Assembly: GCF_000022265.1 (NCBI RefSeq)
Contig: NC_011979.1
Location: forward strand, 2,640,001-2,672,000
DNA from: Geotalea daltonii FRC-32
Lineage (GTDB): Bacteria; Desulfobacterota; Desulfuromonadia; Geobacterales; Geobacteraceae
Length of the DNA stretch: 32,000 nt
Direction: 5' to 3'
Positions within the stretch are counted from its first letter, which is position 1. Each line of letters opens with the position of its first letter. The notes beneath the pieces are model-generated. The model was given only the letters and a program-made list of their open reading frames with translations, was not told the DNA's origin and searched no databases. The translations under genes and the position numbers were made by a program. Below, in pieces: positions 55-31,153 of the stretch.

Positions 55-1425
<1,371 letters not shown>

Positions 1426-6005: not shown

Positions 6006-6082
<77 letters not shown>

Positions 6083-6123: not shown

Positions 6124-6376
6124 TTGCCCACTGTACACACAAGTACTATGTTGCAAGAAAACCGAGGAGAATATCCTTAGAAGCCGTCTCTCCCTGTAGC
6201 CGCCAACTTGAATCCTCCCTCTACAGGGGAGATTCTGTCCCTCTACCCACCAAAATACCCATTCCTAAAGTTGTAGAACAGCGTGCCGCCGATTGTTGGA
6301 AATATTCTCTTTCGTGTGGTGGAATGTAGGGAACGAGATGAAAAACTCCGTGATTGCTAGTGGCAACTTTGCTTCG

Positions 6377-7628: not shown

Positions 7629-7775
7629 CTCCGCCTTGAGGACATGCTCAAGAAAATCGATATAGGATGACTCCTGTTTGGCCGCCACATCCGCGAGATC
7701 GGCATAGACATCGGCCACCGCCTGGAACTTGAGATCATCGCACAAGGCTAGTATCCGTTGGTGCTGTACGCTCAT
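7617..7775 (-). pseudogene. istB: IS21 helper ATPase IstB, N-terminal fragment only
   Basis: My own translation gives MSVQHQRILALCDDLKFQAVADVYADLADVAAKQESSYIDFLEHVLKAEGPT*. This matches only the first ~50 aa of IstB-type proteins. The AAA+ domain is absent. Confidence 0.6.
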
Positions 7776-8886: not shown

Positions 8887-9549
8887 TTACTCCAGATTAT
8901 TGGGTTCCAAATTAAAATGCCATTCCTCAAAGAAATCGCTCAAAAATTGTTCAATGACTGCATGCCTGGACCTCGCCAGCCTTTTACCTGTTTCTGTATC
9001 GAAATCGTCTTTAAGTAGCAACAGTTTCTCGTAATAATGATGAATAACAGAAGGACAATGGGCTCCTGATTCGTACGGCTTGTTTGAGAATGGCACTGTA
9101 GGGTTCCAAATGCATTCATCATACTTTCCACCATATACGAACGACCTGGCAACACCTATAGCACCCAATGCATCGATGTTATCAGCATCTCTGACTATTT
9201 GCGCCTCGAGCGAGAGCTTGGATCGCGCACCAGGAGAAAACGAGTATTGGCTTGTATATGAAATGATTTCTAATATTGTGTCATGATATTTTGGGTTAAC
9301 AGCTATCTGGCCTAAATGTTCTCTTACCGTTTTTTCAGCCTCTTTATGAGATACCTTGGTTGCTTTCAAGCCCTCAAGATGTCGATCGATATCATGTAGA
9401 TAACAAGAAGCGACTATAACCTCCAAATTCCCACCTTCATAATGCGAGATATAACGGGCGATCCTCTCAACCCGCTCTAAATGAAAAAAATCGTGAGCAG
9501 AAGACTCGCCTTGGTAAAAGTCTTTGACATAATCCTTAATATCTTTCAT
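8887..9549 (-). CDS. HD-domain metal-dependent phosphohydrolase (YedJ/YpgQ-like)
   Basis: 220-aa ORF. The HD signature is FFHLERVERIA ... SCYLHDIDR ... VRDADNIDALG. RBS GGGGGAT lies upstream. It is the last gene of the AT-rich operon. Confidence 0.75.
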   Translation of the reverse strand: MKDIKDYVKDFYQGESSAHDFFHLERVERIARYISHYEGGNLEVIVASCYLHDIDRHLEGLKATKVSHKEAEKTVREHLGQIAVNPKYHDTILEIISYTSQYSFSPGARSKLSLEAQIVRDADNIDALGAIGVARSFVYGGKYDECIWNPTVPFSNKPYESGAHCPSVIHHYYEKLLLLKDDFDTETGKRLARSRHAVIEQFLSDFFEEWHFNLEPNNLE

Positions 9550-9576
9550 TTATCCCCCAAACTAGCCGGGTGTGCA

Positions 9577-10458
9577 CTAGTTTTCAAAAACACAGCCAAC
9601 ACCGGTATGAGCCATAAACCACGCGAGATGCGATAAATAAGCACCTTCCTTGATAATGACTGAATCATTATTTCCCATGGATGAAATATGATCAAACAAT
9701 GGATTACTAATCAACTTGGTAGCACACCCTTGAGAATGCGGGCTGACCATAAATGGCTTCTCTAATCTTCCCCCTGACAAACCTTGATAGGCCAATTTGT
9801 CAATGTCTTTATACTCTAGAAAATACATCCTTCCAGCTTGAAAGCCCACTTCGTAAAGGCAATCATGGTCAGGGTCAATATTTTCGAGGACTCTTAAACT
9901 GTCCAATGACGGACATTTACTTGAGCTAGCAGGATATTCCATCCATTGAGCACCATCCCACCTAACGCAGACTGGCTGGCGGCCGAAATCTTCGCTAATT
10001 AAATCACCATTTGAATCTAATAGGAATCTATTTTTGAAAAATCCTTTCCTAAACAAGGCATCCGGCGCACCTTCCACGATCTCAAGAAGAATATGCCTGT
10101 CTTTGACAAGTATTCCTCCAGACCAATCAAACTCCAATAGTGGTTGGACTGTCATGTCATAATCATGAATTCCAAGGTCCTCTGCTTCGGCAATAAGAAT
10201 GTGAATGGTTTCTTCAATATCCTGAGTGGAGGTTAACCTTTTCAGGCAATGTGGATAAACTGAATCTGAAAAATTAGCTCTAACATACAACCATTGTGGT
10301 GCCCATTGGCTAACCAATTGGACCGCGGTGGGGACTTCAGCTTTTTTATGAAACAAAACCGTATTAGGAATCCTCAAATTGCTGCCATCCAAGGCTATAA
10401 GACTCCTGACTTTATCCGTAACTACCTCAAAATTGTTTAGCCTGAATAACCCAGTCAT
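9577..10458 (-). CDS. Small PEP-utilising-enzyme-like protein (ATP-grasp-like core plus phosphohistidine swivel-like C-terminus)
   Basis: 293-aa ORF. TVQPLLEFDWSGGILVKDRHILLEIVEGAPDALFRKG resembles the PpsA/PPDK nucleotide-binding domain. The C-terminal VIIKEGAYLSHLAWFMAHTGVGCVF resembles the mobile His-domain motif (GG-x-T-SH-aAI-ARE-GIP). The assignment is by eye only. Confidence 0.4.
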   Translation of the reverse strand: MTGLFRLNNFEVVTDKVRSLIALDGSNLRIPNTVLFHKKAEVPTAVQLVSQWAPQWLYVRANFSDSVYPHCLKRLTSTQDIEETIHILIAEAEDLGIHDYDMTVQPLLEFDWSGGILVKDRHILLEIVEGAPDALFRKGFFKNRFLLDSNGDLISEDFGRQPVCVRWDGAQWMEYPASSSKCPSLDSLRVLENIDPDHDCLYEVGFQAGRMYFLEYKDIDKLAYQGLSGGRLEKPFMVSPHSQGCATKLISNPLFDHISSMGNNDSVIIKEGAYLSHLAWFMAHTGVGCVFEN

Positions 10459-10558
10459 TTCGTACCCTATAAAAAAATGGAATTATAAGACCACTGGCGA
10501 CTTGACCCCAAACCATCAAACCTATGGTACTGTGGCTTATGTCGAGTTTCAGAATTTC

Positions 10559-10822
10559 TTATTCAGCTTCGGCTTGAGCAGAAAAAGAGGGCGTAGTTTC
10601 GTCTCTGTTTTTCCACTTAAAAAACCCATATAAAGCTTGCACTGAATACACAGTAAACAGGAATACAGAAGCATAGATTCCCTGATAATAATAGAAAAAA
10701 ACCCAAAAAACGTTTATCACCACCCATATTAAATATCCGGTTCGTCTTTTATTAATAACAAGTTGGCCACCAAGTAAACTTCCAGCCACAAGCAACCAAG
10801 TTAAAGCACCATTTGCATTCAA
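10559..10822 (-). CDS. 87-aa three-helix membrane protein, PnuC (nicotinamide riboside transporter)-like single repeat
   Basis: Three hydrophobic segments. The pattern LVINKRRTGYLIWVVINVFWVFFYYYQGIYASVFLFTVYSVQALYGFFKW resembles the PnuC/NMN-transporter family consensus, which ends in YG-x2-W. It uses a TTG start with GAGGGGGA upstream. Confidence 0.4.
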   Translation of the reverse strand: MNANGALTWLLVAGSLLGGQLVINKRRTGYLIWVVINVFWVFFYYYQGIYASVFLFTVYSVQALYGFFKWKNRDETTPSFSAQAEAE

Positions 10823-10882
10823 AACGTTCCCCCTCGTTCCACCTACCCTGAGTTATTAGATGTTCAAATAAAATGACTCAAT

Positions 10883-11788
10883 TCAACTAAAAGCTTGCAA
10901 AATAACATCTTGAGCGGACGCACCCTCTTTAGGGCAGCAACAATTCGTAGCGGAATGGAGTATTTTTACGTAACCTTCTAAGATATTAAGCCTTGAGCCG
11001 TTGTCCATGACACAATCTACCGACTTATTGTTTCTGAATTCCTCAAAACTACTGGTGTTTGCAACAAACCCCTCATTTACTAGATTTCCATTGAAATTTG
11101 AAGGAAACAAACCATTAAACTCACTAAGGGTCAAAAATTTATGATTGTCCTTATGCACATGAACGGATCGGACTTTTAAACCTTTGTTACTTAAACTTTT
11201 AATTCTTTCAATATATTCCGGTACCCCACCACATTCGTATGTATCAAGTAAGACAGAAGCACCATGCCCTACCATTAACTTTTCGTAAAGTTCTCCAACA
11301 TAACGCCTATGCCTGGAACTGAGCCAGTTATGGTAGGATAGTCTTATCTCCTCAACTTCTAGATTATTCCCAGCGGCAAGATAGGCGAGCTTTTGTTTGT
11401 AATCTGAAAGTTCGGCCTCCTCATTAACACGGAGATCTCCTACTGGCGCATGCACAATGTAGTCAGTGAATCCTAATGTGGCGCAAAAAGAAAAAAATTG
11501 CTGCAACAATTTAAAGCCAAGAGGCTTTGACCAGTCATAACTATAACCGCCAGGTTGGTGTACTCTCACCTCTGATGGTGACAGACCATAATCATGTAGG
11601 TACTCCTTGAACCTCAATATCTCACCTTGCAGCGTTTTTAAATCGTCAGTAAAAAAAGACTGGCCAGCAATTACTGGAAGTTGGGTTAATAAGGCAACCT
11701 CAATTCCAATATTCAGTCCAATTAACCCCTGAATGTAACCCCTATCAGCAAAATCGTTGACAGTTACAGTCGTATACATAATACCCAT
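10883..11788 (-). CDS. Xylose-isomerase-like TIM-barrel protein (sugar-phosphate isomerase/epimerase family)
   Basis: Track ORF 10883..11806 has a TTG start. The ATG at 11788 has GGAAGGA upstream. Family-like strand motifs are DYIVHAP, NNLEVEEI, VLLDTYECGG and VRSVHVHKDNH. Confidence 0.45.
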   Translation of the reverse strand: MGIMYTTVTVNDFADRGYIQGLIGLNIGIEVALLTQLPVIAGQSFFTDDLKTLQGEILRFKEYLHDYGLSPSEVRVHQPGGYSYDWSKPLGFKLLQQFFSFCATLGFTDYIVHAPVGDLRVNEEAELSDYKQKLAYLAAGNNLEVEEIRLSYHNWLSSRHRRYVGELYEKLMVGHGASVLLDTYECGGVPEYIERIKSLSNKGLKVRSVHVHKDNHKFLTLSEFNGLFPSNFNGNLVNEGFVANTSSFEEFRNNKSVDCVMDNGSRLNILEGYVKILHSATNCCCPKEGASAQDVILQAFS

Positions 11789-11889
11789 TGAATTAATCCT
11801 TCCCAACCCGTGCCCTTACAAAATGAATACGGAACAGGTCTTAGTCGGCCCAAAAGCTTATCCCAACGCCCTAGATTTTTACCTGCTAA

Positions 11890-13161
11890 CTAAACCTTAA
11901 GTAGGCGCAAATCGTTTTTGATAATGTATCTGAACCATGCCCCTGCAAAGGCCGAGGTTATTATCGCAATCAAGATGAGCGAAGCTGAAAAAGAGCTACT
12001 GACTATCCCCAAGTCAAGCGCTACAGTCGCCAAAACAATGAGTGGCCCACCTTTAGTACTCATCGCAATCCCTAAATTGACACTAGAAAACCAATCTACT
12101 CTCAACATCCTAGTTGCAACTAAGCACCCAGCCATCTGAAAAAAAGTCATATACAAAAGGAACCAACCAAGAAAGAGAGGATCGAAATCCCTGATAAGGT
12201 TCAGCTTTAACCCGACTATGGCGAAATAGAGTGGAACAAAGAAAGCAAGAGAAAATTCCCGGATATGCTTTTTAACATTTATAAATTCGGGCTCTTTAGC
12301 CATCCCAACTACGATACCGGCGAGGAGTGCGCCAAATACCAAGTTAACGCCTAACATACTAGCTATTGCCACAAGAAACAGGCACACCGCCATGACATAC
12401 CCAACAATTGATGACCTGGCAACTACATTCCATTTCGAACCATTCAAGAACATTATTGCTCTTGGTATGATCTTTAAGAAAACTATAAAAAACGCTATCG
12501 TGATGACTAATTTGAGGACTATTTCTGATAAATTGATGGTACGTGCAGCTACTAAATCCCCAGCAATAGCTAAAGCGATCCACACTACTAAATCATGTAT
12601 TGTTGCAGCGGCGAGAACAACATTCGCAAACGGTGTACTTACAATATTCAGTTCGATAAATATTTTAGAAATAACAGGGATAGAAGTGACCGCAGTTGCA
12701 ATTGCTATAATCAATTGCAATGCTAACAGGCTGTGTTTGTCACCGACGTAAGGCGTGAGGTCAAAACAAATCGGCAAAAACCATCCGGCAATGAATGGTA
12801 TGATTGTAGAGCCAATAGTGAGTCCAAAAACAAGTTTATTGTTTTTCTGGTTTAAATAGTTCTGTATTTCAAATCCAGAAATAAACATTAATAAAATCAA
12901 GCCAAACCAGTAGACAATGGAAATTAGCTTACCCTCTGCTACAAATGCATTAAAAACCCAATTCTGCAGATCCGGCAGAAAATGACCAAATACCGTTGGC
13001 CCTAATAAGAATCCACCAAATATTTCACCAATAACACTAGGCATCCTCAATAAAGTAAAAAAGTAGCCACAAATGTGAGCAAAGGTCAACAGCAGGAAGA
13101 TTGCCATGAAAAACCGCGTCAACTCCAGGTCTGTCAAATAGATTGTGTCAGAAACCGTCAC
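11890..13161 (-). CDS. Cation:proton antiporter, CPA2/Na_H_exchanger family, without a KTN domain
   Basis: 423 aa with about 12 predicted hydrophobic helices. The N-terminal signature LLRMPSVIGEIFGGFLLGPTVFG is typical of KefB/NapA-type antiporters. Confidence 0.75.
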   Translation of the reverse strand: MTVSDTIYLTDLELTRFFMAIFLLLTFAHICGYFFTLLRMPSVIGEIFGGFLLGPTVFGHFLPDLQNWVFNAFVAEGKLISIVYWFGLILLMFISGFEIQNYLNQKNNKLVFGLTIGSTIIPFIAGWFLPICFDLTPYVGDKHSLLALQLIIAIATAVTSIPVISKIFIELNIVSTPFANVVLAAATIHDLVVWIALAIAGDLVAARTINLSEIVLKLVITIAFFIVFLKIIPRAIMFLNGSKWNVVARSSIVGYVMAVCLFLVAIASMLGVNLVFGALLAGIVVGMAKEPEFINVKKHIREFSLAFFVPLYFAIVGLKLNLIRDFDPLFLGWFLLYMTFFQMAGCLVATRMLRVDWFSSVNLGIAMSTKGGPLIVLATVALDLGIVSSSFSASLILIAIITSAFAGAWFRYIIKNDLRLLKV

Positions 13162-13195
13162 ACCAACCCCTGCTCTGCTAAGATAACTCTAGTAA

Positions 13196-14101
13196 TCATG
13201 AATAAATTGCCCTGTTTGATACGCACTTATCCCAAAGATGATTGATTTCGTGGAAAGCCTCACGTATATGATCTGCTGTCATTTGTTTGGTATCACCAAG
13301 CGATACGTAATCTCCTTTACTGGAATACGCTAAAGTTAAATCAGGCTTTACAAATACATATGATTCATCCCTTTCTGCAGCTGTCGCATGTGATATGTGT
13401 ACATCGGGAAAATATTCTTTTAAGTTTTGCATCAGTCCTTCGAAATCATCTTGAGGGATACTCAGGCTATCTATATAACTGTAATTATCGTTATAATCAT
13501 TAAAATTGCTAAATTGATAGAATCTCCAGACATCAGGCGTATACAGCGGAAACTTCTCAAACATGATCTTGCCAAGTAATGCGACATGATCGATATTTTT
13601 TTTGGTTACAACAGTACCAAGTTTAACTTTAGCTGTTAGATCATCGTATTCTTTGTAATATCTGAGGAACTCTACTACTTGTGTAAAGTGTTGCGCACCT
13701 AATTCTCCCGTGATTATTTTATCTAACTCTGCTGATGGTGCGTCGAGAGATATACTAATCCATGACAAATATGGGGAAATTTCTTTCCATATTTGTTTTA
13801 ACAGCAGGCCATTAGTAGACAGGTACACGGCGAAACCAATTTTTTTTGCATATTGGGCAATGTCAGCAACATCTTCTCGGACCGTCGGTTCTCCGCCAGT
13901 CAAAACCACTCGCCTCAACCCTGCGATGTATAGCTTGTCTAAAACGTGCTTTATTTCAGCCAAAGAAGCCTCACTGCCCTCTTTTGGGGCATAGCACTTA
14001 TTACAGTTGAGATTACAACGATAAGTAACCATAATATCCACCGGGATTTGACTCAAATCTGTTGTTTTCACATTACCTCCCTCATTAGGCACAAAGGACA
14101 T
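13196..14101 (-). CDS. Radical SAM enzyme, viperin-like (candidate prokaryotic viperin / NTP dehydratase)
   Basis: 301 aa. The cluster motif is YRCNLNCNKCY (CX3CX2C), followed by VVLTGGEPTV, YLSTNGLLL and ISISLDAP. The distal VWRFYQF ... SIPQDDFEGLMQ ... DESYVFV lines up with animal viperin RWKVFQC ... IGDEEFERFLE ... KDSYLIL (from memory). An alternative GTG start at 14071 has the strong RBS GAGGGAGG. Confidence 0.6.
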   Translation of the reverse strand: MSFVPNEGGNVKTTDLSQIPVDIMVTYRCNLNCNKCYAPKEGSEASLAEIKHVLDKLYIAGLRRVVLTGGEPTVREDVADIAQYAKKIGFAVYLSTNGLLLKQIWKEISPYLSWISISLDAPSAELDKIITGELGAQHFTQVVEFLRYYKEYDDLTAKVKLGTVVTKKNIDHVALLGKIMFEKFPLYTPDVWRFYQFSNFNDYNDNYSYIDSLSIPQDDFEGLMQNLKEYFPDVHISHATAAERDESYVFVKPDLTLAYSSKGDYVSLGDTKQMTADHIREAFHEINHLWDKCVSNRAIYS

Positions 14102-14104
14102 CCC

Positions 14105-14935
14105 TTAATTATCAAATATGCCCAATACCTGAGCTGCACGTTGATATTTGATTTTCTTTGTAATACTAACGCCGAACCTATTACCCAACGATTGTGATAG
14201 GACCTCTATCAACTTGACCACGCGAGGGTCCTTTGCAACCTCCGGGCTTATTCGAGGGTAAATAGCCAGCTCTACTTCTGAAACAGGGCAGCTTTTACGC
14301 TTATCCTCTGGTAACCGTAGATTGGACACATGAGCTCTATCTATGCTACATCGCAATGCGTCTTTCTTATCGAGCCAGACAAAAAACGTGAACCTGTAAT
14401 CATCAAGACGTATAGAAGGAATAAGATCAGTACCACGAATACCAAGCTTTTGCTCTAAGTGTAGTCCAGGCTGATCAATGTCTTTTCGTTTTAATAAAGA
14501 CTTGACGATACTCACCGCCTCGATTGAGTCAGGTCCATTTTGTATTGTTTTTTTCTCATCACCCGCAAACACATATCTGTGGTCCCGCCTGACGCTGTGA
14601 CTATCTGATGCTTCTTTAAAGGCACAAAAAGCATGCGTTATTTTATTGCACGAAGTACGCAGCAATGCGCCAGTGTTCAATATCTTGTAATCCTCTGTAT
14701 CGTAATATATTGCGGTGTTTAACGGTGGAGTCACCCGCGCATTTTCCTTTTCAACAATTTTTGCGCCATGTACCAATCCATCAATACAATCTTTCATCTC
14801 ATCTAACCACTGGTAGTACTGTTCGTTCGTTACATTGTCCATCTCGACTTTAACCGCAAGCTGATTAAATATCACCAGCTTCCCAGGTTCGACGGTATAA
14901 ACGGCCTCTTCACTTGGCATCCTTATGCAATCCAT
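14105..14935 (-). CDS. CYTH-like (triphosphate tunnel metalloenzyme) domain protein
   Basis: Track ORF 14105..14950 has a TTG start. The ATG at 14935 has GGAGG 6 nt upstream. The strand pattern resembles CYTH: YYDTEDYKILNTGALLRTS, AFKEA, RRDHRYVF, DDYRFTFFV, SIDRAHV, VSEVELAI, and a C-terminal KIKYQRA. The N-terminal EXEXK motif is degenerate (VKVEMD). Confidence 0.45.
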   Translation of the reverse strand: MDCIRMPSEEAVYTVEPGKLVIFNQLAVKVEMDNVTNEQYYQWLDEMKDCIDGLVHGAKIVEKENARVTPPLNTAIYYDTEDYKILNTGALLRTSCNKITHAFCAFKEASDSHSVRRDHRYVFAGDEKKTIQNGPDSIEAVSIVKSLLKRKDIDQPGLHLEQKLGIRGTDLIPSIRLDDYRFTFFVWLDKKDALRCSIDRAHVSNLRLPEDKRKSCPVSEVELAIYPRISPEVAKDPRVVKLIEVLSQSLGNRFGVSITKKIKYQRAAQVLGIFDN

Positions 14936-14981
14936 GGTTAATCCTCCCAAATATAAGAAATTGATTAATCTCCTCTTTGCC

Positions 14982-15932
14982 CTAAAGGACGGGACATAGC
15001 GGATCGATGCTCGGTTGGTGCTTCAATGCGACAGCAACGCACCCTTTACCGCATCCGGGAACACCACAATTGCTGCATAAAGGGTGATTAAAAAGCTTCT
15101 CCAATTCCGTCGGAAATCCAAATACGTCTTTTACACTGTCGGAATCATATTCTGAGGTGAAGCTAGAAATCCAAGAGCACGGCGTTATCTTGCCATCGGA
15201 CAATATTCCGATAATGTTTTTGCCGGCTGGGCATTTTTGCAACTTCCCTTTTTTAGGTCTAATCAAGTCGATGTACTTTTTGTCTTGCAGTACGTCAGAA
15301 TTTACAATCTGACTTATTTCCTCCTGTGAAACTACATATTCAGAAAGTTCCGCATTATCGTCGACTTCAATTATGTCATTGAGCTTGGCACTTAAATCAT
15401 GAGTTTTTAAGAACTTAAATAATTCGGGAAGTTCATGAATATTCTTCTTCGTTACTGTGTACTGTAAGGAGATTTTTGCCTTGTAAGGCAATAACTCCAG
15501 TATGTTATTAATCACCTGGTCGAAGGCTCCAACCCTACCAGTAAACTCATCGTGTGTTTGCGCAGAAAAACCACACAATCCAATTCTTATTTTCACTGAT
15601 TCACAACACAGTAAATCTAAGAAATGTTTATCTAACAAAAGACCATTCGTATTGATTGATACTGTCATACCTTTTGCTTGAGCATAATTTACAACCTGAA
15701 ATATCCCATCGAATAGTAACGGCTCACCACCTGTTAGTATTATACGTTTAATCCCATGAACAGCCAAATCGTCGATTAGACCCTCGGCTTCCTTCAAAGT
15801 TATTTGTGCATTTTCTCGACGATGTTTGTTTAGACAGTGCTTGCAGCTTAATTGACATTTCCCTGTAATTTCCCAGTTCACCTTGATGACATCTTCATTT
15901 GGCCAGAAACAACATGCTCTTATGTATTCCAT
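14982..15932 (-). CDS. Radical SAM enzyme with C-terminal SPASM/twitch domain
   Basis: 316 aa. The cluster motif is GKCQLSCKHCLN, followed by RIILTGGEPLL and SINTNGLLL. The C-terminal auxiliary-cluster cysteines are KCPAGKNIIGILSDGKITPCSW and CSNCGVPGCGKGCVAVA ... DPLCP. RBS AGGAGA lies upstream. Confidence 0.8.
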   Translation of the reverse strand: MEYIRACCFWPNEDVIKVNWEITGKCQLSCKHCLNKHRRENAQITLKEAEGLIDDLAVHGIKRIILTGGEPLLFDGIFQVVNYAQAKGMTVSINTNGLLLDKHFLDLLCCESVKIRIGLCGFSAQTHDEFTGRVGAFDQVINNILELLPYKAKISLQYTVTKKNIHELPELFKFLKTHDLSAKLNDIIEVDDNAELSEYVVSQEEISQIVNSDVLQDKKYIDLIRPKKGKLQKCPAGKNIIGILSDGKITPCSWISSFTSEYDSDSVKDVFGFPTELEKLFNHPLCSNCGVPGCGKGCVAVALKHQPSIDPLCPVL

Positions 15933-16049
15933 TATTTTCTCCTATTGATACTTCGAAATGAAAGCTGAAGCTTATGGCTAAACCTTTTCAGCGGCTACAA
16001 CCTTACTTTCATTACGACAGCAATAAGGCTGTATCTACGCAAACCATTC

Positions 16050-16442
16050 TTAATCAGCGATGGTGTCACAACTGCCAAAACTCCAACCTTCTATAGGTTT
16101 GTAAACCATCGCTTTATCCTTGAGCAGGCCAGAATGCTTTTTTACGAACAGCTCGATTTCTTCGCGCAATGAAATAAGCTCAATATAGAGATTTAAAGAA
16201 GAGTTATGGTATTCCGACAATTTCCCTGTTTCTATCTTTCCATTAGGAATGTAGCCGCTGTGCATTAGATAAGCGTACGCACTAAAAATCCCGTCCTGCT
16301 TGGCTGCTTCAATAATATCTTCGTACAGAGACCTACCGAAAAAACGCTGTAGGTTGGTAGTCGCTTTGACTTTATCTCTTGCAGTCATATAAATACGCAA
16401 TTGTCCATATTCTTTTATGACTACACTTTCGTCATCCGACAC
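16050..16442 (-). CDS. DUF190 (PII-like fold) protein
   Basis: 130 aa with a GTG start and GGGAGG 6 nt upstream. The pattern LRIYMTARDKV ... SLYEDIIEAAKQDGIFSAYAYLMHSGY ... LNLYIELISLREEIELFVKK matches the DUF190 family layout. Confidence 0.55.
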   Translation of the reverse strand: MSDDESVVIKEYGQLRIYMTARDKVKATTNLQRFFGRSLYEDIIEAAKQDGIFSAYAYLMHSGYIPNGKIETGKLSEYHNSSLNLYIELISLREEIELFVKKHSGLLKDKAMVYKPIEGWSFGSCDTIAD

Positions 16443-16508
16443 TTACAACCTCCCATAGTCCCATGGTTTAACATTGCCTTACTACACTAGTAACAAATTC
16501 ACCTTTAC

Positions 16509-17057
16509 CTAAACAGTTTCCAAAATACCATTGAGGCAATGTTCCTTTTCAATCACTGCTTCACTACAATTAACAAATTCATTGAATGCTTTGTTAAGTA
16601 ATTTTTTGTAGTTTGGGAAAATATTCAGAGCCTGTATCTCTGCTTTGCTAAACCATCCTATATTTTTATACTCTCGGTAATCATGCCGGATTTGATCAGT
16701 ATTTGAACTGCATATAAAAACAAAATCTATGTGATAATGTAAATCATTTGGTATATTTATCAGTTCGCATAAAACAGCGTATGGGTTGTGCAGTACAACG
16801 GCTTCATTTGTTCCAAGATTTACATCACAATTACTAACAATGGTTATTTTTAAACCTGTTTCTTCCATTATTTCTCTACTAACAGCTTCGTCAGGGGATT
16901 CGTTTACCTCTATATGCCCACCTGGCCCGAGCCAGGTGCCTAATTTTTTGTGTTCTAGTAATAGCACTTTCTCATTGTGGAAAATGATTGCCGACGCAAC
17001 GAAATGCTTAATGACCGAACCTTCTCTTAAGGTTGCTACCTCACAGTCTACAGACAT
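16509..17057 (-). CDS. NUDIX hydrolase
   Basis: 182 aa with a complete Nudix box, GGHIEVNESPDEAVSREIMEETGL (GX5EX7REUXEEXGU). It is the first gene of the AT-rich operon. Confidence 0.85.
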   Translation of the reverse strand: MSVDCEVATLREGSVIKHFVASAIIFHNEKVLLLEHKKLGTWLGPGGHIEVNESPDEAVSREIMEETGLKITIVSNCDVNLGTNEAVVLHNPYAVLCELINIPNDLHYHIDFVFICSSNTDQIRHDYREYKNIGWFSKAEIQALNIFPNYKKLLNKAFNEFVNCSEAVIEKEHCLNGILETV

Positions 17058-17237
17058 TGAAAACCCCTATTCTAGCTGACTATTTAGCTTGTCAGTCTTC
17101 CCAGATGGACTGCATTGCACTCATTTGCGTCGCGTTTTTACGTTCTAACAATAAGCATCCAGACAACAGCTGAACAATCCCTACCACCTCGTTTAAACCC
17201 TGTGCGGTTTGAAATACAATTTTTGGTCATATTAATG

Positions 17238-17257
17238 AACTGTCCTAAAGGACAGGT
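17238..17257. promoter_or_regulatory. lux-box-like 20-bp palindrome (AACTGTCCTAAAGGACAGGT)
   Basis: It has the CTG-N10-CAG core and 8 of 10 symmetric half-site positions. It lies in the 482-bp divergent region between the NUDIX operon start (17057) and the luxI-like start (17540). Confidence 0.5.
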
Positions 17258-17539
17258 GCTTCGTGCTTAGCTTCTTTAAGCCGCTAAAAGAGGAGTCGTT
17301 ATTGATTATTTTTTGAACTTGCTGGCGGGTATTTACTGAAACATTTCAAAGCAGTTTGGGATTACTCGGAGTCATTAATTGACGTAACCAGTGTAAATTG
17401 AATGCAATTCCATCTTGATTTTTGGAGGAACCACATCGGTACAGACCTGATTTTGGCAAGGAATGTTGCCGCAGCTGTACTTAAAGCCAGGTGATTTTCT
17501 TTCAATTTTCTCCTCTTATGTGTTTCAAGGAGGAGTAAT

Positions 17540-18277
17540 ATGATAGCGATTAGCAAACATGTTGCAACACCCGCTGCTAATGGCCTTAAGAGTGATGTCT
17601 TTATAAGGGAGGGTGGTCTTTATGTCACAAACATTGTTGCAAAAGAAGATATATTTAAAGCACATTCATTGAGGTATAGAGTTTTTTGTGATGAATTGGG
17701 ATGGGCTCCCCAAAATTTTTGTAAGCTTGATATAGATAATTATGATGATGGGGCTGTCTTTTTTGGCGTTTTTGATGTGAATAATGATTTAAAAGCCTTT
17801 TTACGGATTGTGACCTCAGATCATCCATTCATGATAGAGAACGAGTTTCCGTTTTTGGTAAAGGCGGGATCAACTATAAGCAAACGAGACGATGTCGTTG
17901 AGGTATCAAGACTATGTGTTGATGCCGATGCAAGATCAGAGACGTTTTCTGGTAATTTCGGCGTGCATACTGCCTCTCTTCTTTTATATAAGGGTGTTTA
18001 TCATTGGTGTTTGAAGAATCGAATAAACTACCTTTATCTTGTTGTTGATTATAAGGTGTTCAGATTGCTAAATGTGAAAGGATTTCCCTGCAGATTGATA
18101 GGAGATCCAAAAGTTATGCCCGATGGTGTAGTTGCGGTTGCAGCAATGCTGAATTGGAGGGAATTTGAAGAGTTGAACCTTGTTGGAACTAAAAATTTGA
18201 AATCATGGTTCAGTCAATATCAATTACCCCCGCCGACAGTGCAATTGCCACAGCGTGAGTTCTGCTCACAGCATTAA
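17540..18277 (+). CDS. LuxI-family acyl-homoserine-lactone synthase-like protein (GNAT fold)
   Basis: 245 aa with RBS AAGGAGG upstream. Family-invariant positions are present with the expected spacing: LRYRVFCDELGW, DIDNYD, AFLRIV and VEVSRL. The related N-acyl amino acid synthase family cannot be excluded. Confidence 0.65.
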   Translation: MIAISKHVATPAANGLKSDVFIREGGLYVTNIVAKEDIFKAHSLRYRVFCDELGWAPQNFCKLDIDNYDDGAVFFGVFDVNNDLKAFLRIVTSDHPFMIENEFPFLVKAGSTISKRDDVVEVSRLCVDADARSETFSGNFGVHTASLLLYKGVYHWCLKNRINYLYLVVDYKVFRLLNVKGFPCRLIGDPKVMPDGVVAVAAMLNWREFEELNLVGTKNLKSWFSQYQLPPPTVQLPQREFCSQH

Positions 18278-18956
18278 GTTTAACCATGATATTTTCAACA
18301 TGAAATTTTACAGTTCTTACACTGATAGCGAGAATTACTGAGATATCCCAAGAACTCTTTCCCTTTTTCACCCAATTAAGCACTTCTATTTCTCTTTTTG
18401 AAAGTTCGAAATTTACTGGAGCTTTTGTTTTTGATAAATAAGTCGTAAATGCAGTATGTAAATGTGGGGTCAAATTTTCAATTATGAATTTCTCACGTGG
18501 GTGGTTTTCCAGTTTACCAGCAACTGAAAACAGGCTTCCTTCTGTCGATTTCAAGTTTCTAACTCCACAGGCAATACCATTATATAAGTTAAAATCTCTT
18601 GCCGCTGAGATGAATTCTTTAGGTGGATTCCATTTCTTGTAGGTGTCTTCCCAAAACTGTAGCTCAAAATTACTAAAGTTTTCTTTAGCAATCGGGTCGA
18701 CTTGACAAAAATTTTTTCTTTTATAAGTGATTAGCCATTCTTCTGGATAAGATATATTCATTACATCATATGTCTGTATTAGACCGTTAGTACCTATTTG
18801 GGCTATACCAAATACTGCGTTATCAATCGCTACAAGACTAGACAAACTGTCTACAATATTCTTAATACCTGTCTTATTCTTACAGGTCACACATTCGTGA
18901 ATAAGCTCTAAAAGAAAAACTGCATCACGCTTTGAAATACAATCAGTATTTTCCAT
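18210..18956 (-). CDS. LuxR-family transcription regulator with autoinducer-binding domain
   Basis: 248 aa. The N-terminal segment EEWLITYKRKNFCQVDPIAKENFSNFELQFWED reproduces the W-x3-Y-x8-DP-x13-W spacing of the AHL-receptor invariants (TraR W57, Y61, D70, P71, W85). The C-terminal HTH is LSKREIEVLNWVKKGKSSWDISVILAISVRTVKFHVENIMVKL. Confidence 0.8.
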   Translation of the reverse strand: MENTDCISKRDAVFLLELIHECVTCKNKTGIKNIVDSLSSLVAIDNAVFGIAQIGTNGLIQTYDVMNISYPEEWLITYKRKNFCQVDPIAKENFSNFELQFWEDTYKKWNPPKEFISAARDFNLYNGIACGVRNLKSTEGSLFSVAGKLENHPREKFIIENLTPHLHTAFTTYLSKTKAPVNFELSKREIEVLNWVKKGKSSWDISVILAISVRTVKFHVENIMVKLNAVSRTHAVAIALSAGVIDID

Positions 18957-20757: not shown

Positions 20758-20938
20758 TATGTTGTGGTAATTCACAAGTATACGGACCTATTAGCTGGCA
20801 ATTACAGGGTTGTTCGCGGAAAAAACTTCATAGAACTATGATTTATATTTTGAAATTGAAAATTTGGACACCGGGTTGTGTTTATTTTCGGACAAAGAGC
20901 TGCCGGCAAAGCCGACAGTGGCTGAAGGAGAAGAGAGA

Positions 20939-22177
20939 GTGTGTGAAACAAGCTCATTATCCGAATTAAGAATCCTGGATTTCACCGGCGAGCTAGGTCC
21001 CTATGCTGCAAAACTGTATGCAGGTCTGGGCGCTGATGTCATTCACATAGAACCTGTAACTGGAGATCCTTTGCGGTCCACGGGACCGTTCTACGAAAAC
21101 CGGCCAGGAAAAGAAAACAGCCTCCAGTTCATCTATTACAATGCTGGCAAGAGAGGAATGGTGTTGGACATCAGCAACGAGACGGGTAGAAAAATATTTG
21201 TGGAAATGTGCAAAGGGGTCGACATTCTGTTCGAGAGCTTTGCCCCCGGATATCTTGATGCCCTGGGCCTGTCCTATGATGAGCTGAGTGCGGTAAATCC
21301 CAAATTGGTACAAACCTCCATTACACCGTTTGGTTACTTCGGACCGTACAGCGCGTATCCGGGGTCCGATCTGACCTGCGCGGCACTTGGAGGATTTTTG
21401 TATCTTGCAGGTGTCGATAACGACAAGCCGGTCCGGGCCTGTGACAATCAGGCCTATAGGATGGCTGAGGTCTATGCTGCTGTCGGTAGTTCAATTGCTG
21501 CACTGTTTGCCAAACGTACCGGCATAGGCCAGTTCGTCGATGTCTCCTGCATGGAGGCGGTGGGCATGGCTTTGGAGACCGCCGCTCAATGCTGGGATCT
21601 GGAAGGTACCCTGCGAAGGGGGAGAGGACGGGAGGCAGGATCGGCTACCATTCATCCCTGCAAGGATGGCTTTGTGGCCATCGTTGCCATCATGGGCAGG
21701 AACAAGGTCATGTGGGAGCCGTTCGTTGAATGGATGAAGGATGAAGATGTGGACGGATGGGAGCTCTTTAACAGCGATAACTGGATCAATGCTGCCTACC
21801 GTGAATCCAAGGAAGGATACGAACTGTTCTGCCGCATTTTTGAAGGCTTCACCATGAAGCACACCAAGCAGTATCTCTATGACGCCGGCCAGGCCCATCG
21901 AGTCGCCGTCAGCCCGGTCAGTAACGGCAAGGACCTTTTGGAAAATCCCCAGCTGAACTATCACGACTTCTGGAAGCGGCTGTATCACGAGCCGGTCGGT
22001 GGCGAGGTGGTCTGTCCCGGTCCCCCCTACGAGTTTGGGAATCTTAAGTGGCGCTTGGGGGATTTTGCTCCCACCTTTGGCCAGCACACCGCCGAGGTGC
22101 TTGGCGAATGCGGCTATAGCCGCACTGAAATCGAAGCGTTTCACAGGGAGGGGGTCGTCCATGTTGCCAAACCTTAG
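20939..22177 (+). CDS. bbsE: Family III CoA-transferase subunit (BbsE-like, succinyl-CoA:arylsuccinate CoA-transferase)
   Basis: Track ORF 20864..22177 has a TTG start. The GTG at 20939 has GAAGGAGAAGAG upstream. The CaiB/BaiF family N-terminus is [30 protein letters not shown]. The bbs assignment comes from the operon context. Confidence 0.6.
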
Positions 22178-23390
22178 AAAGGCCCTCGAAGGGATTGTGG
22201 TCTGCGACTTTTCCTGGGTAGGGGCCGGTCCGATCGCCACGAACGTCCTCGGCCAGTGCGGGGCCGAGGTGATCAAGATAGAAAGCAGGAACCGGCCGGA
22301 CCTCCTGAGAACAGGTGGCCCCTTCAAGGATGGGATCAACGAGGGGCTGGAGCGGAGCGGCTACTTCGCCAACCGCAATCCCAACAAGAAGGGGATCGCG
22401 CTGGATATGAGCCAGCCAAAGGCCAGGGCCGTGGCGGTTCGCCTGATCAAAAAGAGCGACATCGTCATCAACAACTTCCGCGTGGGGCAGATGGAGAAGT
22501 GGGGTCTTGGCTGGGAGGACGTGCAGAAGATCAACCCGCGGATCATCTACGTTACCATGAGCCTGCAGGGGGAAACCGGGCCGCAGAAGAGCTACATGGG
22601 GTTCGGGGTCAATCTGAATGCCTTGTGCGGACTCACCGCCCGGGCCTGTTTTCCCGGCGAGCGCCCTTTCGGGACCGGCACGAACTACACCGACCACGTC
22701 ATGGCCCCCAGCCACACGCTCTTTGGCATTATGGCCGCCCTGCTTGAACGGGAACAAACCGGCAAGGGGCAGACAGTGGCTGTCTCCCAGCTGAAATCCG
22801 CCATCAGCATGGCACCTACGAGCGCAATGGCCTATGCGGCCAATGGGGACACGCTGGGTCCGGCGGGATTCGGCGATCCCCATGCAGCGCCCCACGGACT
22901 GTACACAACTCTCGGTTATCGGAAATGGATCGCCATTGCAGTGTTCAGCGAGGACGAATGGCGGGCGCTGAAGAAGGTGATGGGAAACCCCGCCTGGGCT
23001 GAGGACGAGAAGTTCAGCTCGCTGCAAGGGCGCAAGGAGCACGAGGCGGAACTGAACGACCAGATCGAAGGGTGGACAAGAGGGCTGCACGCGGACCGGA
23101 TCATGAGCGAGCTGCTGCGAAACGGCGTCAGGGCAGGCGTGGTCAACGATGCACGGGGCGCCATCGAAGATGAGCACCTGCGGAAGCGGGAGTTCTGGTC
23201 GTACCTGGACCATCCGGTGATGGGGCGCACCCTGTACAATCGGGCACCGATCCGCCTTTCCAAGACTCCGCTCCGGATGGAAACCGCTGCCCCCCTCTTG
23301 GGCCAGCATACCAAGGAAGTGCTGAAAGGGATGCTCGACTACACGGATGAAGAGATCGCCATGCTCACCGAGGAAAAGGTGCTCGTGTAG
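22161..23390 (+). CDS. bbsF: Family III CoA-transferase subunit (BbsF-like)
   Basis: This is the in-frame ATG at 22161 within track ORF 21999..23390. It overlaps the previous gene by 17 nt. The N-terminus is [34 protein letters not shown]. Confidence 0.6.
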
Positions 23391-23438
23391 CTGCTGGTCA
23401 CCGGAGCTGCTTCAATACTAATCACCAGGAGAACAAGA

Positions 23439-24671
23439 ATGGATTTCAGCATACCCGAAGAATACATGATGCTTAAAGAATCGATGCGGGAGTTCGTCAA
23501 GCGGGAACTGATGCCGCTGGAAAAGACGCTTCTGGAGCGGGAGCTCTCCCTCTGGACCCAGCCCGGCCACCTGATCCCCGAAGAGGATCACAAACGGCTT
23601 TTGCAGAAGACGAAGGACCTGGGCTTCTGGGGTCTTGAGGTGGATGAGGAATTTGGCGGCCAGGGGCTGGGGATGCTGGCCAAGACCCTGGTGGTTGAGG
23701 AGCTCTCCAAGAGCCTGGTGGGCTTCTCCAACCATGGCTTTACTCTGCCGCCGGACGCCCCCAACCTGTACTACCTGCACGAGTGCTGCGGACCCCGGCA
23801 GCGGGAAAAGTACTTCGTACCGTACTGCAACGGCGAAGTCGATTCAGCCATGGCGTGTACCGAACCGGGAGCCGGATCGGACGTGAGCGGTCTCAAGACC
23901 AAGGCGGTGAAGAAGGGTAACAAGTGGGTCATCAACGGCACCAAGACATTCATCAGCAAATGCGACTATGACAACGTCTTCTTCATAGTCATTGCGGTCA
24001 CCGATCCCAGTGCAGCGAGCAAAGACAGGTTTACGGCCTTTCTCATCGACCGGGAGCATCCGGGGGTACGGATAGGCAAGGAGATTCCGGTCATCGGGCC
24101 GATGCCGACCTGGGACCTGATCCTGGAGGATGTGGAGGTGGATGATGACGCCATCCTCGGCGATGTGGGCAAGGCGTTCATCCCGCTGCAGAACCGGTTC
24201 GGCGTGCGCCGGATCGAGCTGGCCTCCAGTTGCACCGGCATGGCGGAGCGGCTGATCCAGATGATGATCGACCAGGCCAACACGCGCGTCACCTTTGGTC
24301 AGCCGCTGGCCGACCGGGGCACCATCCAGAACTGGATCGCCGACTCTACCATGGAACTGGAACAGGTTCGCTGGATGCTCTACTACGCAGCCTGGAAATC
24401 GGATCAGGGGCACAAGGACCTGCGGATCGAAGGGGCGAGCGTCAAGGTGGCGGCCACCGAGATGCTGACCCGTGTGGCTGACCGGGCGATCCAGATCCAT
24501 GGCGGAGTTGGGGTTTCCCACGAACTGGGCATCGAATATGTAGCCCGGCATGTGCGGATCTGGCGCATCCTGGAAGGCCCTTCCGAGATCCATCGGTGGC
24601 TGATCGCCCGTCAGCTGTTGAAGGAGAAGAAGCCGTACAACCCGTTCATCGTTGCCAGTGACGAAATGTAG
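23439..24671 (+). CDS. bbsG: Acyl-CoA dehydrogenase (BbsG-like)
   Basis: 410-aa FAD acyl-CoA dehydrogenase fold: MACTEPGAGSDVSGLKT ... WVINGTKTFIS ... IHGGVGVSHE ... EGPSEIHR. RBS AGGAGA lies upstream. Confidence 0.65.
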   Translation: MDFSIPEEYMMLKESMREFVKRELMPLEKTLLERELSLWTQPGHLIPEEDHKRLLQKTKDLGFWGLEVDEEFGGQGLGMLAKTLVVEELSKSLVGFSNHGFTLPPDAPNLYYLHECCGPRQREKYFVPYCNGEVDSAMACTEPGAGSDVSGLKTKAVKKGNKWVINGTKTFISKCDYDNVFFIVIAVTDPSAASKDRFTAFLIDREHPGVRIGKEIPVIGPMPTWDLILEDVEVDDDAILGDVGKAFIPLQNRFGVRRIELASSCTGMAERLIQMMIDQANTRVTFGQPLADRGTIQNWIADSTMELEQVRWMLYYAAWKSDQGHKDLRIEGASVKVAATEMLTRVADRAIQIHGGVGVSHELGIEYVARHVRIWRILEGPSEIHRWLIARQLLKEKKPYNPFIVASDEM

Positions 24672-24726
24672 GCCGAGTCGCGAACTACAGCGGCGTTCGT
24701 TTAAGCGCCCGTAGCCGGAGCACTCC

Positions 24727-24793
24727 CCCTCTCCCTAGCCATCTCCCACTGGGGGAGAGGGAATCATACCTCCCCTCCCTTCGATGGGAGGGG
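24727..24793. repeat. Two adjacent G/C-rich hairpins (REP-like intergenic element)
   Basis: CCCTCTCCC (24727-24735) pairs with GGGAGAGGG (24753-24761). CCCCTCCC (24772-24779) pairs with GGGAGGGG (24786-24793) around a 6-nt loop. No T-tract follows. Confidence 0.6.
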
Positions 24794-24865
24794 CTGGGGA
24801 AGGGTGCAAGAGACTGATCATAAGCCCGAACGTTAACAGGACACTGATCGATAAAGGAGAAAGTA

Positions 24866-25636
24866 ATGGGAGTCGATTTTCGTACAGAGAACAATGTTGG
24901 CTACATCACCCTGAACAGGCCTGACGCCATGAATGCCCTGGACCCCGAAGGGTTGGTGCGGCTGGCGGAGATCTGGGGCGAGGTGAAGACCAATCCGGAC
25001 ATCAGGGTCGCGGTGCTGACCGGTGCCGGGGAGAAGGCGTTCTGCACCGGCACGGACATGAAAAAGTCAAAGGTGCCGGACGAGTGCATGGCCGCCCTCT
25101 ACTACAGGGAAGGACAGCCGATTATCCCGCACATGAAGATGTGGAAGCCGATCATCGCCTGCATCAACGGGTACGCCATTGGTGGCGGCCTTGAGATGGC
25201 CCTGGCGTGCGACCTGAGAATCTGCAGCACTACGGCCAAGTTCGGCCTGACCGAAACCAAGGTAGCAAGCCTTGCCGGCCTGAACGGGACCCAGTGCCTG
25301 CCGAGGGCCATTCCCCAAGCGGTTGCCATGAAGATGCTTTTGACCGGAGAAATGATCGACGCCGCCGAGGCGCACCGGGTCGGCCTGGTCAGCGATGTTG
25401 CCGAACCGGACCAGCTGTTGGATCTGGCCAGGAAGTATGCGGAGAAGATCGCCGGCAATGCGCCTTTGAGCGTCATGGCCGCCAAGCAGGCGGCAGTGAT
25501 GGGGATGGATATGCCGCTCTCCCATGCCATCGACTTCTCGTACCTGTTGTGGGGGATCCTGCGGGACACGGAAGACCGGAAAGAGGGTTTCACCGCCTTT
25601 GCCGAGAAGCGGGCGCCCCAGTATCGGGGGCGGTAG
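24866..25636 (+). CDS. bbsH: Enoyl-CoA hydratase/isomerase, crotonase family (BbsH-like)
   Basis: 256 aa with a crotonase fold: ITLNRPDAMNAL, VAVLTGAGEKAFCTGTDM, IACINGYAIGGGLEMALACDLR. RBS AAAGGAGA lies upstream. Confidence 0.65.
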   Translation: MGVDFRTENNVGYITLNRPDAMNALDPEGLVRLAEIWGEVKTNPDIRVAVLTGAGEKAFCTGTDMKKSKVPDECMAALYYREGQPIIPHMKMWKPIIACINGYAIGGGLEMALACDLRICSTTAKFGLTETKVASLAGLNGTQCLPRAIPQAVAMKMLLTGEMIDAAEAHRVGLVSDVAEPDQLLDLARKYAEKIAGNAPLSVMAAKQAAVMGMDMPLSHAIDFSYLLWGILRDTEDRKEGFTAFAEKRAPQYRGR

Positions 25637-25790
25637 TTCCGAAACAAAAACTCAGGTTGCTCAAAAGCAGTCAGATCGTCGCACCCGCAGGAAGCTCCGC
25701 GGAGGCGTAGCAGCGCTACGCCGCACAAAGGGGCTTTCGAGGACGGCGGCGAGATGGCTGCTTTTCAGCAACCTGCCAAGGAGCCAAATT

Positions 25791-26546
25791 ATGCACATAG
25801 TCGTCTTGGCAAAAGTAGTCCCCGATTACGAAGTCCCGTCGGCGGACTTCGAACTGGTGGAGAACAGGGCCCATCCCCGGTACACGCGGATGATCGGCCT
25901 GTACGATGAAAACGCCGTCGAATTGGGGGTACAGCTGAAGGAGAAACTCGGGGCTGACCTGACCATCGTCTCCTATGGACTCAGTGATGACGTGCAGTTC
26001 CTCAGGAAGGCGCTGGCCATGGGTGCGGACAAGGTGGTCCTGGTGGAGGGGAGTTCGGACGACCCGTACGTGATCGCCGCCAACCTGAAGGAGGCCATCG
26101 ACCGGCAGGGGAACGTGGACCTGGTCCTGGCGGGCCGCCAGTCCTCGGACATGGACCGGGGAGTGGTTCCGGGGGTGTTGGCCGGTATGCTCGACCTCCC
26201 CTTTGTCCCCCAGGCCTGCAGCGTTGAAAGCACGGATGGGGGGTGGAAAATCGCCCAGATAACCGAAAACGGCAAGCGGCTCTTGAAGCTCTCCGGCAAG
26301 GGGGTGCTCTCCATCACCAGCGTTCCGGAGAACGTTCCCCGGATCCCGGCGGTGAAGGCGATCTTCGCGGCCAAGAAGAAGCCGGTGGAAAAGCTGGCCG
26401 AGATCGGGGCGAGGAAGATGAGCATCGCCGAACTGTCGGTGACCATCCCCAAGGTGGAGTCCAACTGTGAACAGATACCGGCCGAGGACATGGACGAGGC
26501 TGTCCGTCAGCTTCTGAGAAGGCTCAAGGAGGAGCGATACCTATGA
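25791..26546 (+). CDS. etfB: Electron transfer flavoprotein beta subunit
   Basis: This is the ATG at 25791 within track ORF 25524..26546. The N-terminus MHIVVLAKVVPDYE, then LVLAGRQSSDMDRGVVPGVLA, are typical of EtfB. Its stop overlaps the etfA start (ATGA at 26543). Confidence 0.85.
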   Translation: MHIVVLAKVVPDYEVPSADFELVENRAHPRYTRMIGLYDENAVELGVQLKEKLGADLTIVSYGLSDDVQFLRKALAMGADKVVLVEGSSDDPYVIAANLKEAIDRQGNVDLVLAGRQSSDMDRGVVPGVLAGMLDLPFVPQACSVESTDGGWKIAQITENGKRLLKLSGKGVLSITSVPENVPRIPAVKAIFAAKKKPVEKLAEIGARKMSIAELSVTIPKVESNCEQIPAEDMDEAVRQLLRRLKEERYL

Positions 26547-27430: not shown

Positions 27431-27431
27431 C

Positions 27432-29417: not shown

Positions 29418-29451
29418 GAGACGTTGGAAAAACAACTTGAGGAGGAGCGTC

Positions 29452-29892: not shown

Positions 29893-29940
29893 GCGTAAAG
29901 AATAAAACCTATAGAACCAGAGAAACAGGAGATTATTCAT

Positions 29941-31113: not shown

Positions 31114-31153
31114 GACCGTAAGGACATCTTCAGGTATATCAAGGAGGCAGACC

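Follow-up and report, generated by a model that had tools for sequence, protein, structure and literature searches.

In the Geotalea daltonii FRC-32 genome, a 20-bp palindrome lies between a gene for a quorum-sensing signal synthase and a divergent operon of ten genes, with the gene of a LuxR-type regulator close by. This raises two questions: is the palindrome an operator of that regulator, and if so, which of its two neighbors does it control? We analyzed both in a window of 32,000 nucleotides, meaning the whole stretch of DNA, with positions counted from its first letter. The palindrome, here called Box 1, had been reported in a first-pass annotation, and both its sequence and its coordinates were exact in the window. 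A second, similar site (Box 2) had been overlooked there. The boxes and the genes around them are as follows.

17238..17257, no strand: Box 1, the reported palindrome AACTGTCCTAAAGGACAGGT, with its 16-bp core CTGTCCTAAAGGACAG at 17240-17255
17473..17492, no strand: Box 2, AGCTGTACTTAAAGCCAGGT
16509-17057, minus strand: NUDIX gene, the first of the ten cargo genes
17540..18277, plus strand: luxI-type acyl-homoserine-lactone synthase gene, 245 aa (PF00765, E = 1.3e-18)
18210..18956, minus strand: luxR-type regulator gene, 248 aa, CviR-like by sequence (PF03472 + PF00196)

The 20-mer of Box 1 pairs at eight of its ten positions around a CTG-N10-CAG core, as described before, and the 16-bp core at seven of eight. 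Its likeness to the lux box of Vibrio fischeri, given earlier as 13/20 identities, was reproduced with the published sequence of that box, ACCTGTAGGATCGTACAGGT (confirmed in PMC4444344). The center of Box 1, at 17247.5, is 190.5 bp away from the ATG of the NUDIX gene (17057) and 292.5 bp from the ATG of luxI (17540), in agreement with the approximate distances first reported. The Pfam domains found in the surrounding genes also matched the names that they had been given: Autoind_synth for the synthase, Autoind_bind plus GerE for the regulator, and NUDIX followed by nine co-directional genes for the operon.

Generic palindromes of this quality were common. The 32-kb window contained 26 20-mers with at least 8/10 pairs, compared with 14.4 in dinucleotide shuffles, and palindromy alone is therefore weak evidence for Box 1. 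Once the CTG-N10-CAG core was required in addition to at least 8/10 pairs, Box 1 alone remained in the 32 kb, and 30 shuffles contained no such site.

For comparison we used 37 loci encoding relatives of the synthase (37–70% identity), from Geobacteraceae, Nitrospirota, Thermodesulfobacteriota and other MAGs. Two of them (L001 and L002) were 100% identical to the window and so brought no extra comparative information. Almost all 37 loci had a convergent receptor gene, and in about 20 of them the motif ACCTGT-N8-ACAGGT was found 43–77 bp 5' of the luxI start. A symmetrised weight matrix was built from 17 luxI-proximal boxes of other organisms, none of them from the window. Across 408 kb of related loci, every matrix match of at least 13 bits adjoined a luxI/luxR pair, showing that the motif is specific to these quorum-sensing loci.

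Box 1 was the best match of this matrix in the 32 kb, with 25.1 bits, followed by Box 2 (17.0 bits) and, far below, by a third site (6.6 bits). The best scores from 100 dinucleotide-shuffled versions of the window averaged 9.3 bits and went no higher than 17.5 bits, and only one of the 100 reached the score of Box 2 anywhere. The matrix scan found no further boxes inside the ten-gene cluster.

These numbers make it very unlikely that Box 1 is non-functional, either as a chance match or as a remnant in decay, left by a duplication of the luxI promoter or by an earlier cargo junction. Such a reading draws on the frequency of generic 8/10 palindromes given above, and, the cargo junction being unique to the Geotalea genome, purifying selection on Box 1 is not demonstrable. 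However, the score of Box 1 tops those of all 100 shuffles and lies nearer to the matrix consensus than that of the presumably functional Box 2, whereas a relic would be expected to drift away from it. Box 1 is also located in the sole intergenic region that adjoins the quorum-sensing genes.

The regulator encoded in the locus had CviR as its best solved relative (3qp6; E = 5.8e-38, 134 bits, residues 14–241), while SdiA, RhlR, LasR, QscR and TraR reached at most 68 bits each. Among solved structures, CviR is by far the most similar one. The recognition helix, RTVKFHV, is identical in the two proteins. The regulator residues Y70, W74, Y78, D87, P88 and S144 align with Y80, W84, Y88, D97, P98 and S155 of CviR, positions which we take to be AHL contacts and hallmarks of the family. 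Natural relatives of the regulator were found in Geobacteraceae and in Nitrospirota MAGs. The motif, its specificity, its conservation in the relatives and the family of the regulator are computed properties of the locus.

The ideal operator consensus of CviR is a 16-bp palindrome, CTGNCCNNNNGGNCAG (Stauff & Bassler 2011, as cited in PMC12114271). The core of Box 1 fits this consensus at 10/10 specified positions, and that of Box 2 at 8/10. The palindrome in the csuI promoter of Chromobacterium, CTGTCCGATAGGACAG, departs from the Box 1 core solely at the four N positions. Thus, the V. fischeri lux box, with which Box 1 was compared earlier, yields to the CviR/CsuR palindrome as the closest known operator. 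The gene topology is shared as well: csuI/csuR and cviI/cviR of Chromobacterium are convergent with an 80-bp overlap, and the Geotalea luxI and luxR genes are convergent with 3' ends overlapping by 68 bp, a layout kept in the relatives. There are also differences from CviR/CsuR. Their host is a betaproteobacterium, whereas the host of Box 1 belongs to the anaerobic Geobacteraceae. The near-ideal site of Geotalea is not placed before the synthase gene, where Box 2 fits only at 8/10 positions, and the flanks of the Geotalea boxes extend to ACCTGT/ACAGGT, as in the lux type. The cargo is adjacent in Geotalea and dispersed in Chromobacterium.

With respect to the operator class, Box 1 is a dyad of ~20 bp with a CTG-N10-CAG core. 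The locus encodes a receptor with an autoinducer-binding domain and a GerE-type HTH (PF03472, PF00196), together with a LuxI-type synthase (PF00765), and the motif recurs at orthologous quorum-sensing promoters, Box 2 being the positional counterpart. By these sequence criteria, Box 1 belongs to the lux-box operators, closest to the CviR/CsuR subtype. The proposal that the adjacent LuxR-type protein uses it as its operator gains support from the recurrence of the motif, the top matrix score, the fit to the CviR consensus and the CviR-like regulator. We predict that, very probably, the neighboring quorum-sensing regulator does bind at Box 1.

The arrangement of the locus was compared with those of other known systems. 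The V. fischeri lux box and Box 1 are both 20-bp dyads whose core is CTG-N10-CAG and whose ends are of the ACCTGT/ACAGGT type. In V. fischeri, luxR and luxI are divergent with a single box, whereas in Geotalea the synthase and regulator genes are convergent and there are two boxes. The tra boxes (TraR) and the esa boxes (EsaR) are 18–20-bp dyads, also bound by dimers of the LuxR family, and the tra boxes serve divergent promoters. TraR itself was a much weaker match to the Geotalea regulator (E = 1e-6 to 2e-8). The lux box of Nitrospira NspR1, ACCTGGCGGTTCCGCCAGGT, is situated between two divergent genes, of which the synthase gene is 81 bp away and the other one 125 bp; NspR1 with C8-HSL induces both divergent neighbors, and binding to the box was detected by EMSA (PMC8553950). 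It resembles the Geotalea boxes in its non-classical host and its divergent intergenic placement, and it provides an experimental example of divergent neighbors being controlled from a lux box. One box is shared by both directions in the NspR1 system, whereas Geotalea has two, and the inner half-site bases differ (GCG/CGC for NspR1, TCC/GGA for Geotalea).

Box 2 was first picked up in a search for intergenic repeats, as a direct repeat (D1) whose copy of the core, at 17475, is 77% identical. Its center is 57.5 bp 5' of the luxI ATG and 235 bp from that of Box 1, both boxes lying within the 482-bp divergent intergenic region. Judged by motif and distance, it corresponds in position to the luxI-proximal box that is conserved in the relatives. 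Downstream of it, we found three elements.

17514..17519, plus strand: TCTTAT, candidate luxI -10 hexamer, 22–27 nt after Box 2
17529-17535, plus strand: GGAGGAG, luxI ribosome-binding site (RBS), 52 nt downstream of Box 2
17505..17541, plus strand: potential anti-Shine-Dalgarno hairpin of the luxI leader (inverted repeat I4), with arms at 17505-17517 and 17528-17541

Boxes of the lux class are centered near -42.5 (class II) or about -60 (class I) from the signal-dependent start. With TCTTAT as the -10 element, the center of Box 2 would fall near -43, a class II arrangement; this spacing is compatible with that of V. fischeri LuxR, which gives class II activation at -42.5. The stretch TTTTCTCCTCTTAT was kept at equal offset in five related loci (L031, L033, L036, L039 and L003), and a T-rich tract was also conserved downstream of the Box 2 counterparts. 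Hexamers of the TCTTAT type score weakly on an E. coli-weighted -10 scale, and there was no clear peak toward luxI. Against the class distances, this hexamer ruler weakly supports about -43 for Box 2 and is ambiguous for Box 1 in both directions.

The luxI-leader hairpin has 13 pairs, three of them with compensatory changes (RNAalifold, six loci). It pairs UUUUCUCCUC with the luxI Shine-Dalgarno GAGGAG. The hairpin would mask the luxI ribosome-binding site only in transcripts starting upstream of ~17505, and because it overlaps the candidate -10 hexamer, its conservation has two possible causes. The luxI product itself had 99 homologs, mainly in Geobacteraceae, Nitrospirota and Desulfobacterota MAGs.

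For the target of Box 1, the second boxes of the relatives are informative. A second high-scoring box was present in five independent relatives. In L031/L032 and in L033-35 it faces a small repeat-peptide gene (MKKFSSVTAASANLSNCTYTGTI...), followed by a radical SAM(/SPASM) enzyme, and in L036-38 an isochorismatase-AIRS-HypF-aminotransferase-permease operon. In L003, from the Geobacteraceae, it faces a metallo-beta-lactamase-fold protein and a phosphopantetheinyl transferase, while L021 and L024 have tandem boxes upstream of luxI. The distance from the second box to the first cargo gene was 115–190 bp in the relatives, versus 190 bp for Box 1. The cargo operon of the window was found beside luxI/luxR in none of the 37 related loci, so Box 1 has analogs, the second boxes, but no true ortholog.

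The first-pass annotation had proposed the operon, the synthase gene, or both as targets. Because the synthase has its own Box 2 at the conserved proximal position, Box 1 is more likely the site of the operon and less likely that of the synthase. Since the second boxes of the relatives often face a variable cargo operon, we infer that Box 1 controls the divergent operon.

In the closest relatives, the repeat peptides are encoded at 1020-1226 (minus strand) in L032 and at 6140-6382 (plus strand) in L033, with …SANLSNCTYTGTITPAIKRYSS… occurring twice. Together with the radical SAM(/SPASM) enzymes, they likely form a RiPP cluster under quorum-sensing control in these two loci.

Box 1 could also be a genuine LuxR site that acts mainly on luxI and leaves the NUDIX operon outside of quorum-sensing control, either as an upstream auxiliary operator or as part of a distal second promoter with a leader of ~250 nt. 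We consider this unlikely. The flank ACAGGTGCTT and, 47 nt on, the RBS-like AAAGAGGAGT do resemble the arrangement of Box 2 and luxI, the tandem boxes of L021 and L024 are upstream of luxI, and the conserved anti-Shine-Dalgarno hairpin would matter only for transcripts starting upstream of the promoter of Box 2. On the other hand, the similarity between the flanks of Box 1 and Box 2 was non-significant (p ~0.10), no usable ORF follows the RBS-like stretch, the spacing of 235 bp between the boxes is a non-integral number of helical turns, and the second boxes of the relatives face cargo genes. Control of the divergent operon thus stays the preferred role of Box 1.

An origin of Box 1 by duplication of the luxI promoter found no support in the flank comparison, which was non-significant on both sides (p ~0.10 downstream, 0.29 upstream). 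The RBS-like stretch is located at 17287-17316 on the plus strand and mirrors the luxI RBS after Box 2; only a 4-codon ORF follows, with a TTG at 17302, which may be a relic or a mini-ORF. The small ORFs between Box 1 and the NUDIX gene (30–31 aa) had a poor ribosome-binding context and no homologs.

On the NUDIX side of Box 1, there were two -10 candidates.

17229..17234, minus strand: TAATAT, the best -10-like hexamer on this side, 4 nt from the Box 1 edge
17211-17216, minus strand: TATTTC, an alternative -10 candidate, 22–27 nt from the Box 1 edge

At 20–27 nt from Box 1 the hexamers were poor on both sides by the E. coli-weighted ruler (TATTTC on the minus strand, TAAAAG on the plus strand). 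This lack of a good -10 hexamer on either side, measured with an E. coli-type ruler, counts against control of the operon by activation from Box 1 as part of a two-operator model. L003 and L033, at their second boxes, share with Box 1 the succession of a box, 4–5 nt and TAATAT; the flank in L003 is also similar to that of Box 1 (p = 0.018). A -10 element 4 nt from the box edge suggests a geometry more typical of repression.

It is therefore conceivable, if improbable, that the regulator represses at Box 1, with the box overlapping the core promoter of the NUDIX operon instead of being centered at -42.5. Repression could come from ligand-free binding that is relieved by the signal, as for EsaR, or from signal-dependent occlusion. 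The TAATAT next to Box 1, with the same arrangement in L003 and L033, is in line with such a mode. So is the convergent, overlapping layout of the synthase and regulator genes, which is also that of EsaI/EsaR-type systems, an illustration of the repressor mode. In engineered promoters, a lux box placed inside the core promoter led to LuxR-dependent repression (Egland & Greenberg, as described in PMC4444344). However, TAATAT is not accompanied by a -35 element, as the ACCTGT at that place matches TTGACA at 0/6 positions. CviR, the nearest characterized relative, works as an activator that depends on its signal, and it shares the gene topology. Box 2 and the corresponding boxes of its relatives show activator-like spacing to the conserved downstream hexamer. 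Activation is thus the mode that we favor for the boxes.

Strong -10-like hexamers (TATGAT, TATAAT, TATAGT, TAAACT) were observed 22–24 nt beyond the far edge of the proximal boxes, on the opposite strand and at class II distance, in many relatives, including L033, L036, L003, L022, L019 and L010. In L036-38, a minus-strand operon begins ~90 nt away. The hexamers hint at divergent, box-dependent promoters or at a bidirectional use of the boxes.

Other searches of the intergenic region gave no further elements. A scan for consensus promoters and terminators remained at chance level, and Rfam (E <= 1) returned one chance-level sRNA match and no riboswitch or leader element. The implied NUDIX leader of ~150 nt is without a recognizable element, and the fold of the 161-nt NUDIX leader was not more stable than those of shuffles (z = 0.30).

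The genes that Box 1 would control form a compact cluster.

8887..17057, minus strand: ten co-directional cargo genes (Pfam, NCBIfam, PADLOC), in the order NUDIX, DUF190, radical SAM, CYTH/TTM-like, viperin-like radical SAM, CPA2 antiporter, uncharacterized 307-aa protein, PnuC fragment, uncharacterized 293-aa protein, HD hydrolase
14105-14950, minus strand: 281-aa protein with no Pfam domain, between the radical SAM genes
8887-9549, minus strand: HD hydrolase gene

The gaps between the cargo genes were at most 117 bp, and no convincing intergenic terminators were found within the cluster. The second radical SAM enzyme had a full-length match to prokaryotic viperins (PADLOC pVip, 116 bits); it stayed under the NCBIfam cut-off (101 vs 180) and was distant from RSAD2 (E = 6e-10). 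The first radical SAM enzyme was a weaker match to viperins. The two genes with viperin-like profiles are at 13196-14101 and 14982-15932 on the minus strand, with PADLOC pVip scores of 116 and 79 bits, respectively.

The 281-aa protein between them was 60–74% identical to proteins of Streptomyces, Kitasatospora, Myxococcus and Bacillota. Its AlphaFold model (pLDDT 93.9) matched the CYTH/triphosphate-tunnel enzymes YgiF, class IV adenylate cyclases and thiamine triphosphatase, with E values down to 2.6e-10 and a target-normalised TM of 0.65–0.70. From this model, a CYTH/triphosphate-tunnel-metalloenzyme fold is confidently predicted. Elsewhere (L040-L045), homologs of this protein are encoded beside radical SAM, histidine-phosphatase, metallophosphatase, MFS and glycosyltransferase genes. 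It is the most specific protein of the cluster, and near its homologs in other phyla we found no boxes (best score <=10.4 bits) and no luxR gene.

The PnuC fragment is an 87-aa ORF (10559-10822, minus strand) that matches only profile positions 113-175 of 175, i.e., the C-terminal third. It is either a truncated gene or one with a mis-called start. When three of the cargo proteins that lack Pfam domains were compared by sequence with solved structures, there were no matches. The 281-aa fold, the viperin-like enzymes, the NUDIX and HD proteins and the PnuC fragment together point to nucleotide-triphosphate chemistry as the predicted activity of the cargo. The operon could encode a nucleoside-analog or a defense-type pathway.

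The quorum-sensing pair and its cargo are part of a low-GC island of ~6.1–20.5 kb, with a GC content of 36–43% at 9–20.5 kb versus 53–64% in the flanks. Toward its left end, the following features were found.

6006..6079, plus strand: tRNA gene at the left edge of the island (Rfam tRNA, 65.6 bits)
6377-7049: Gp49/HTH toxin-antitoxin pair, on the island
7772-8602: resolvase-HTH-like protein of 276 aa, on the island

The tRNA (6006-6079) was the only Rfam match in the whole window at the gathering threshold. No integrase is present on the island, and when the right border was searched for att-like direct repeats of the tRNA end, an 11-bp match was all that turned up. The low GC content, the tRNA edge and the toxin-antitoxin and resolvase-like genes indicate that the quorum-sensing pair and the cargo are on a horizontally acquired island. 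In the flanks, ProRS and the benzylsuccinate-pathway proteins fell into 90%-identity clusters with Geotalea toluenoxydans and Geotalea sp. SG265.

The right flank (20864-31900, plus strand) carries genes for the beta-oxidation of benzylsuccinate (anaerobic toluene degradation): family III CoA-transferases, benzylsuccinyl-CoA dehydrogenase, phenylitaconyl-CoA hydratase, ETF, an Fe-S oxidoreductase and a thiolase. The proteins of this flank are at least 90% identical to Geotalea and Geobacter proteins.

For the locus as a whole, we propose that the divergent region holds two operators for the island-encoded, CviR-like receptor of the LuxR family. The acyl-homoserine lactone made by LuxI would build up until dimers of the receptor bind Box 1 and Box 2. 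From Box 2, centered near -43 of a weak promoter, the receptor would exert a positive feedback on signal synthesis, i.e., luxI autoinduction. Box 1 would be the control site of the divergent ten-gene NUDIX/CYTH-like/viperin-like radical-SAM/HD operon, which would thereby come under cell-density control. An effect of Box 1 toward luxI as well, making it bidirectional, is possible. We consider the full two-operator model, with autoinduction through Box 2 and control of the operon through Box 1, to be reasonably probable. Binding by the receptor, the dependence on the signal, the target promoters and the sign of regulation are what we infer for the two boxes.

Quorum sensing by AHL is almost uncharacterized in the Geobacteraceae. 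Gene clusters linked to luxR in Deltaproteobacteria were flagged as unexplored in 2018 (PMC5872303), and we found no published description of the Geotalea system of two boxes, quorum-sensing pair and cargo in the literature. As an operator, Box 1 is an ordinary representative of a well-known class. Three features are of interest: the layout with two operators, the recurrence of a second box in front of a variable cargo, and, on a mobile island, a cargo of an unusual, nucleotide-directed kind. The locus is a compact and testable regulon, consisting of one receptor, two operators of different strength, a 482-bp region and the adjacent cargo operon. The family-wide consensus ACCTGT-N8-ACAGGT can be used to predict quorum-sensing regulons in Geobacteraceae and Nitrospirota, and natural-product or defense clusters under quorum-sensing control could be located through the second box that recurs in front of the cargo.

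More tentatively, and with less confidence than for the two-operator model, we raise the less likely possibility that luxI, luxR and the two operators form a portable "density switch" on the mobile islands of anaerobes, placed before varied cargo, which here would be a pathway that modifies nucleotide triphosphates and yields a modified nucleoside or nucleotide. Its parts would be both viperin-like radical SAM enzymes, the CYTH/TTM-like enzyme, the NUDIX and HD proteins and the transporter genes, and the switch would turn it on directly. If this is true, the switch would have been plugged repeatedly before different cargo operons in Geobacteraceae, Nitrospirota and Desulfobacterota, and in Geotalea the modified nucleoside or nucleotide, produced under density control, would serve as an antimetabolite or in anti-phage defense.
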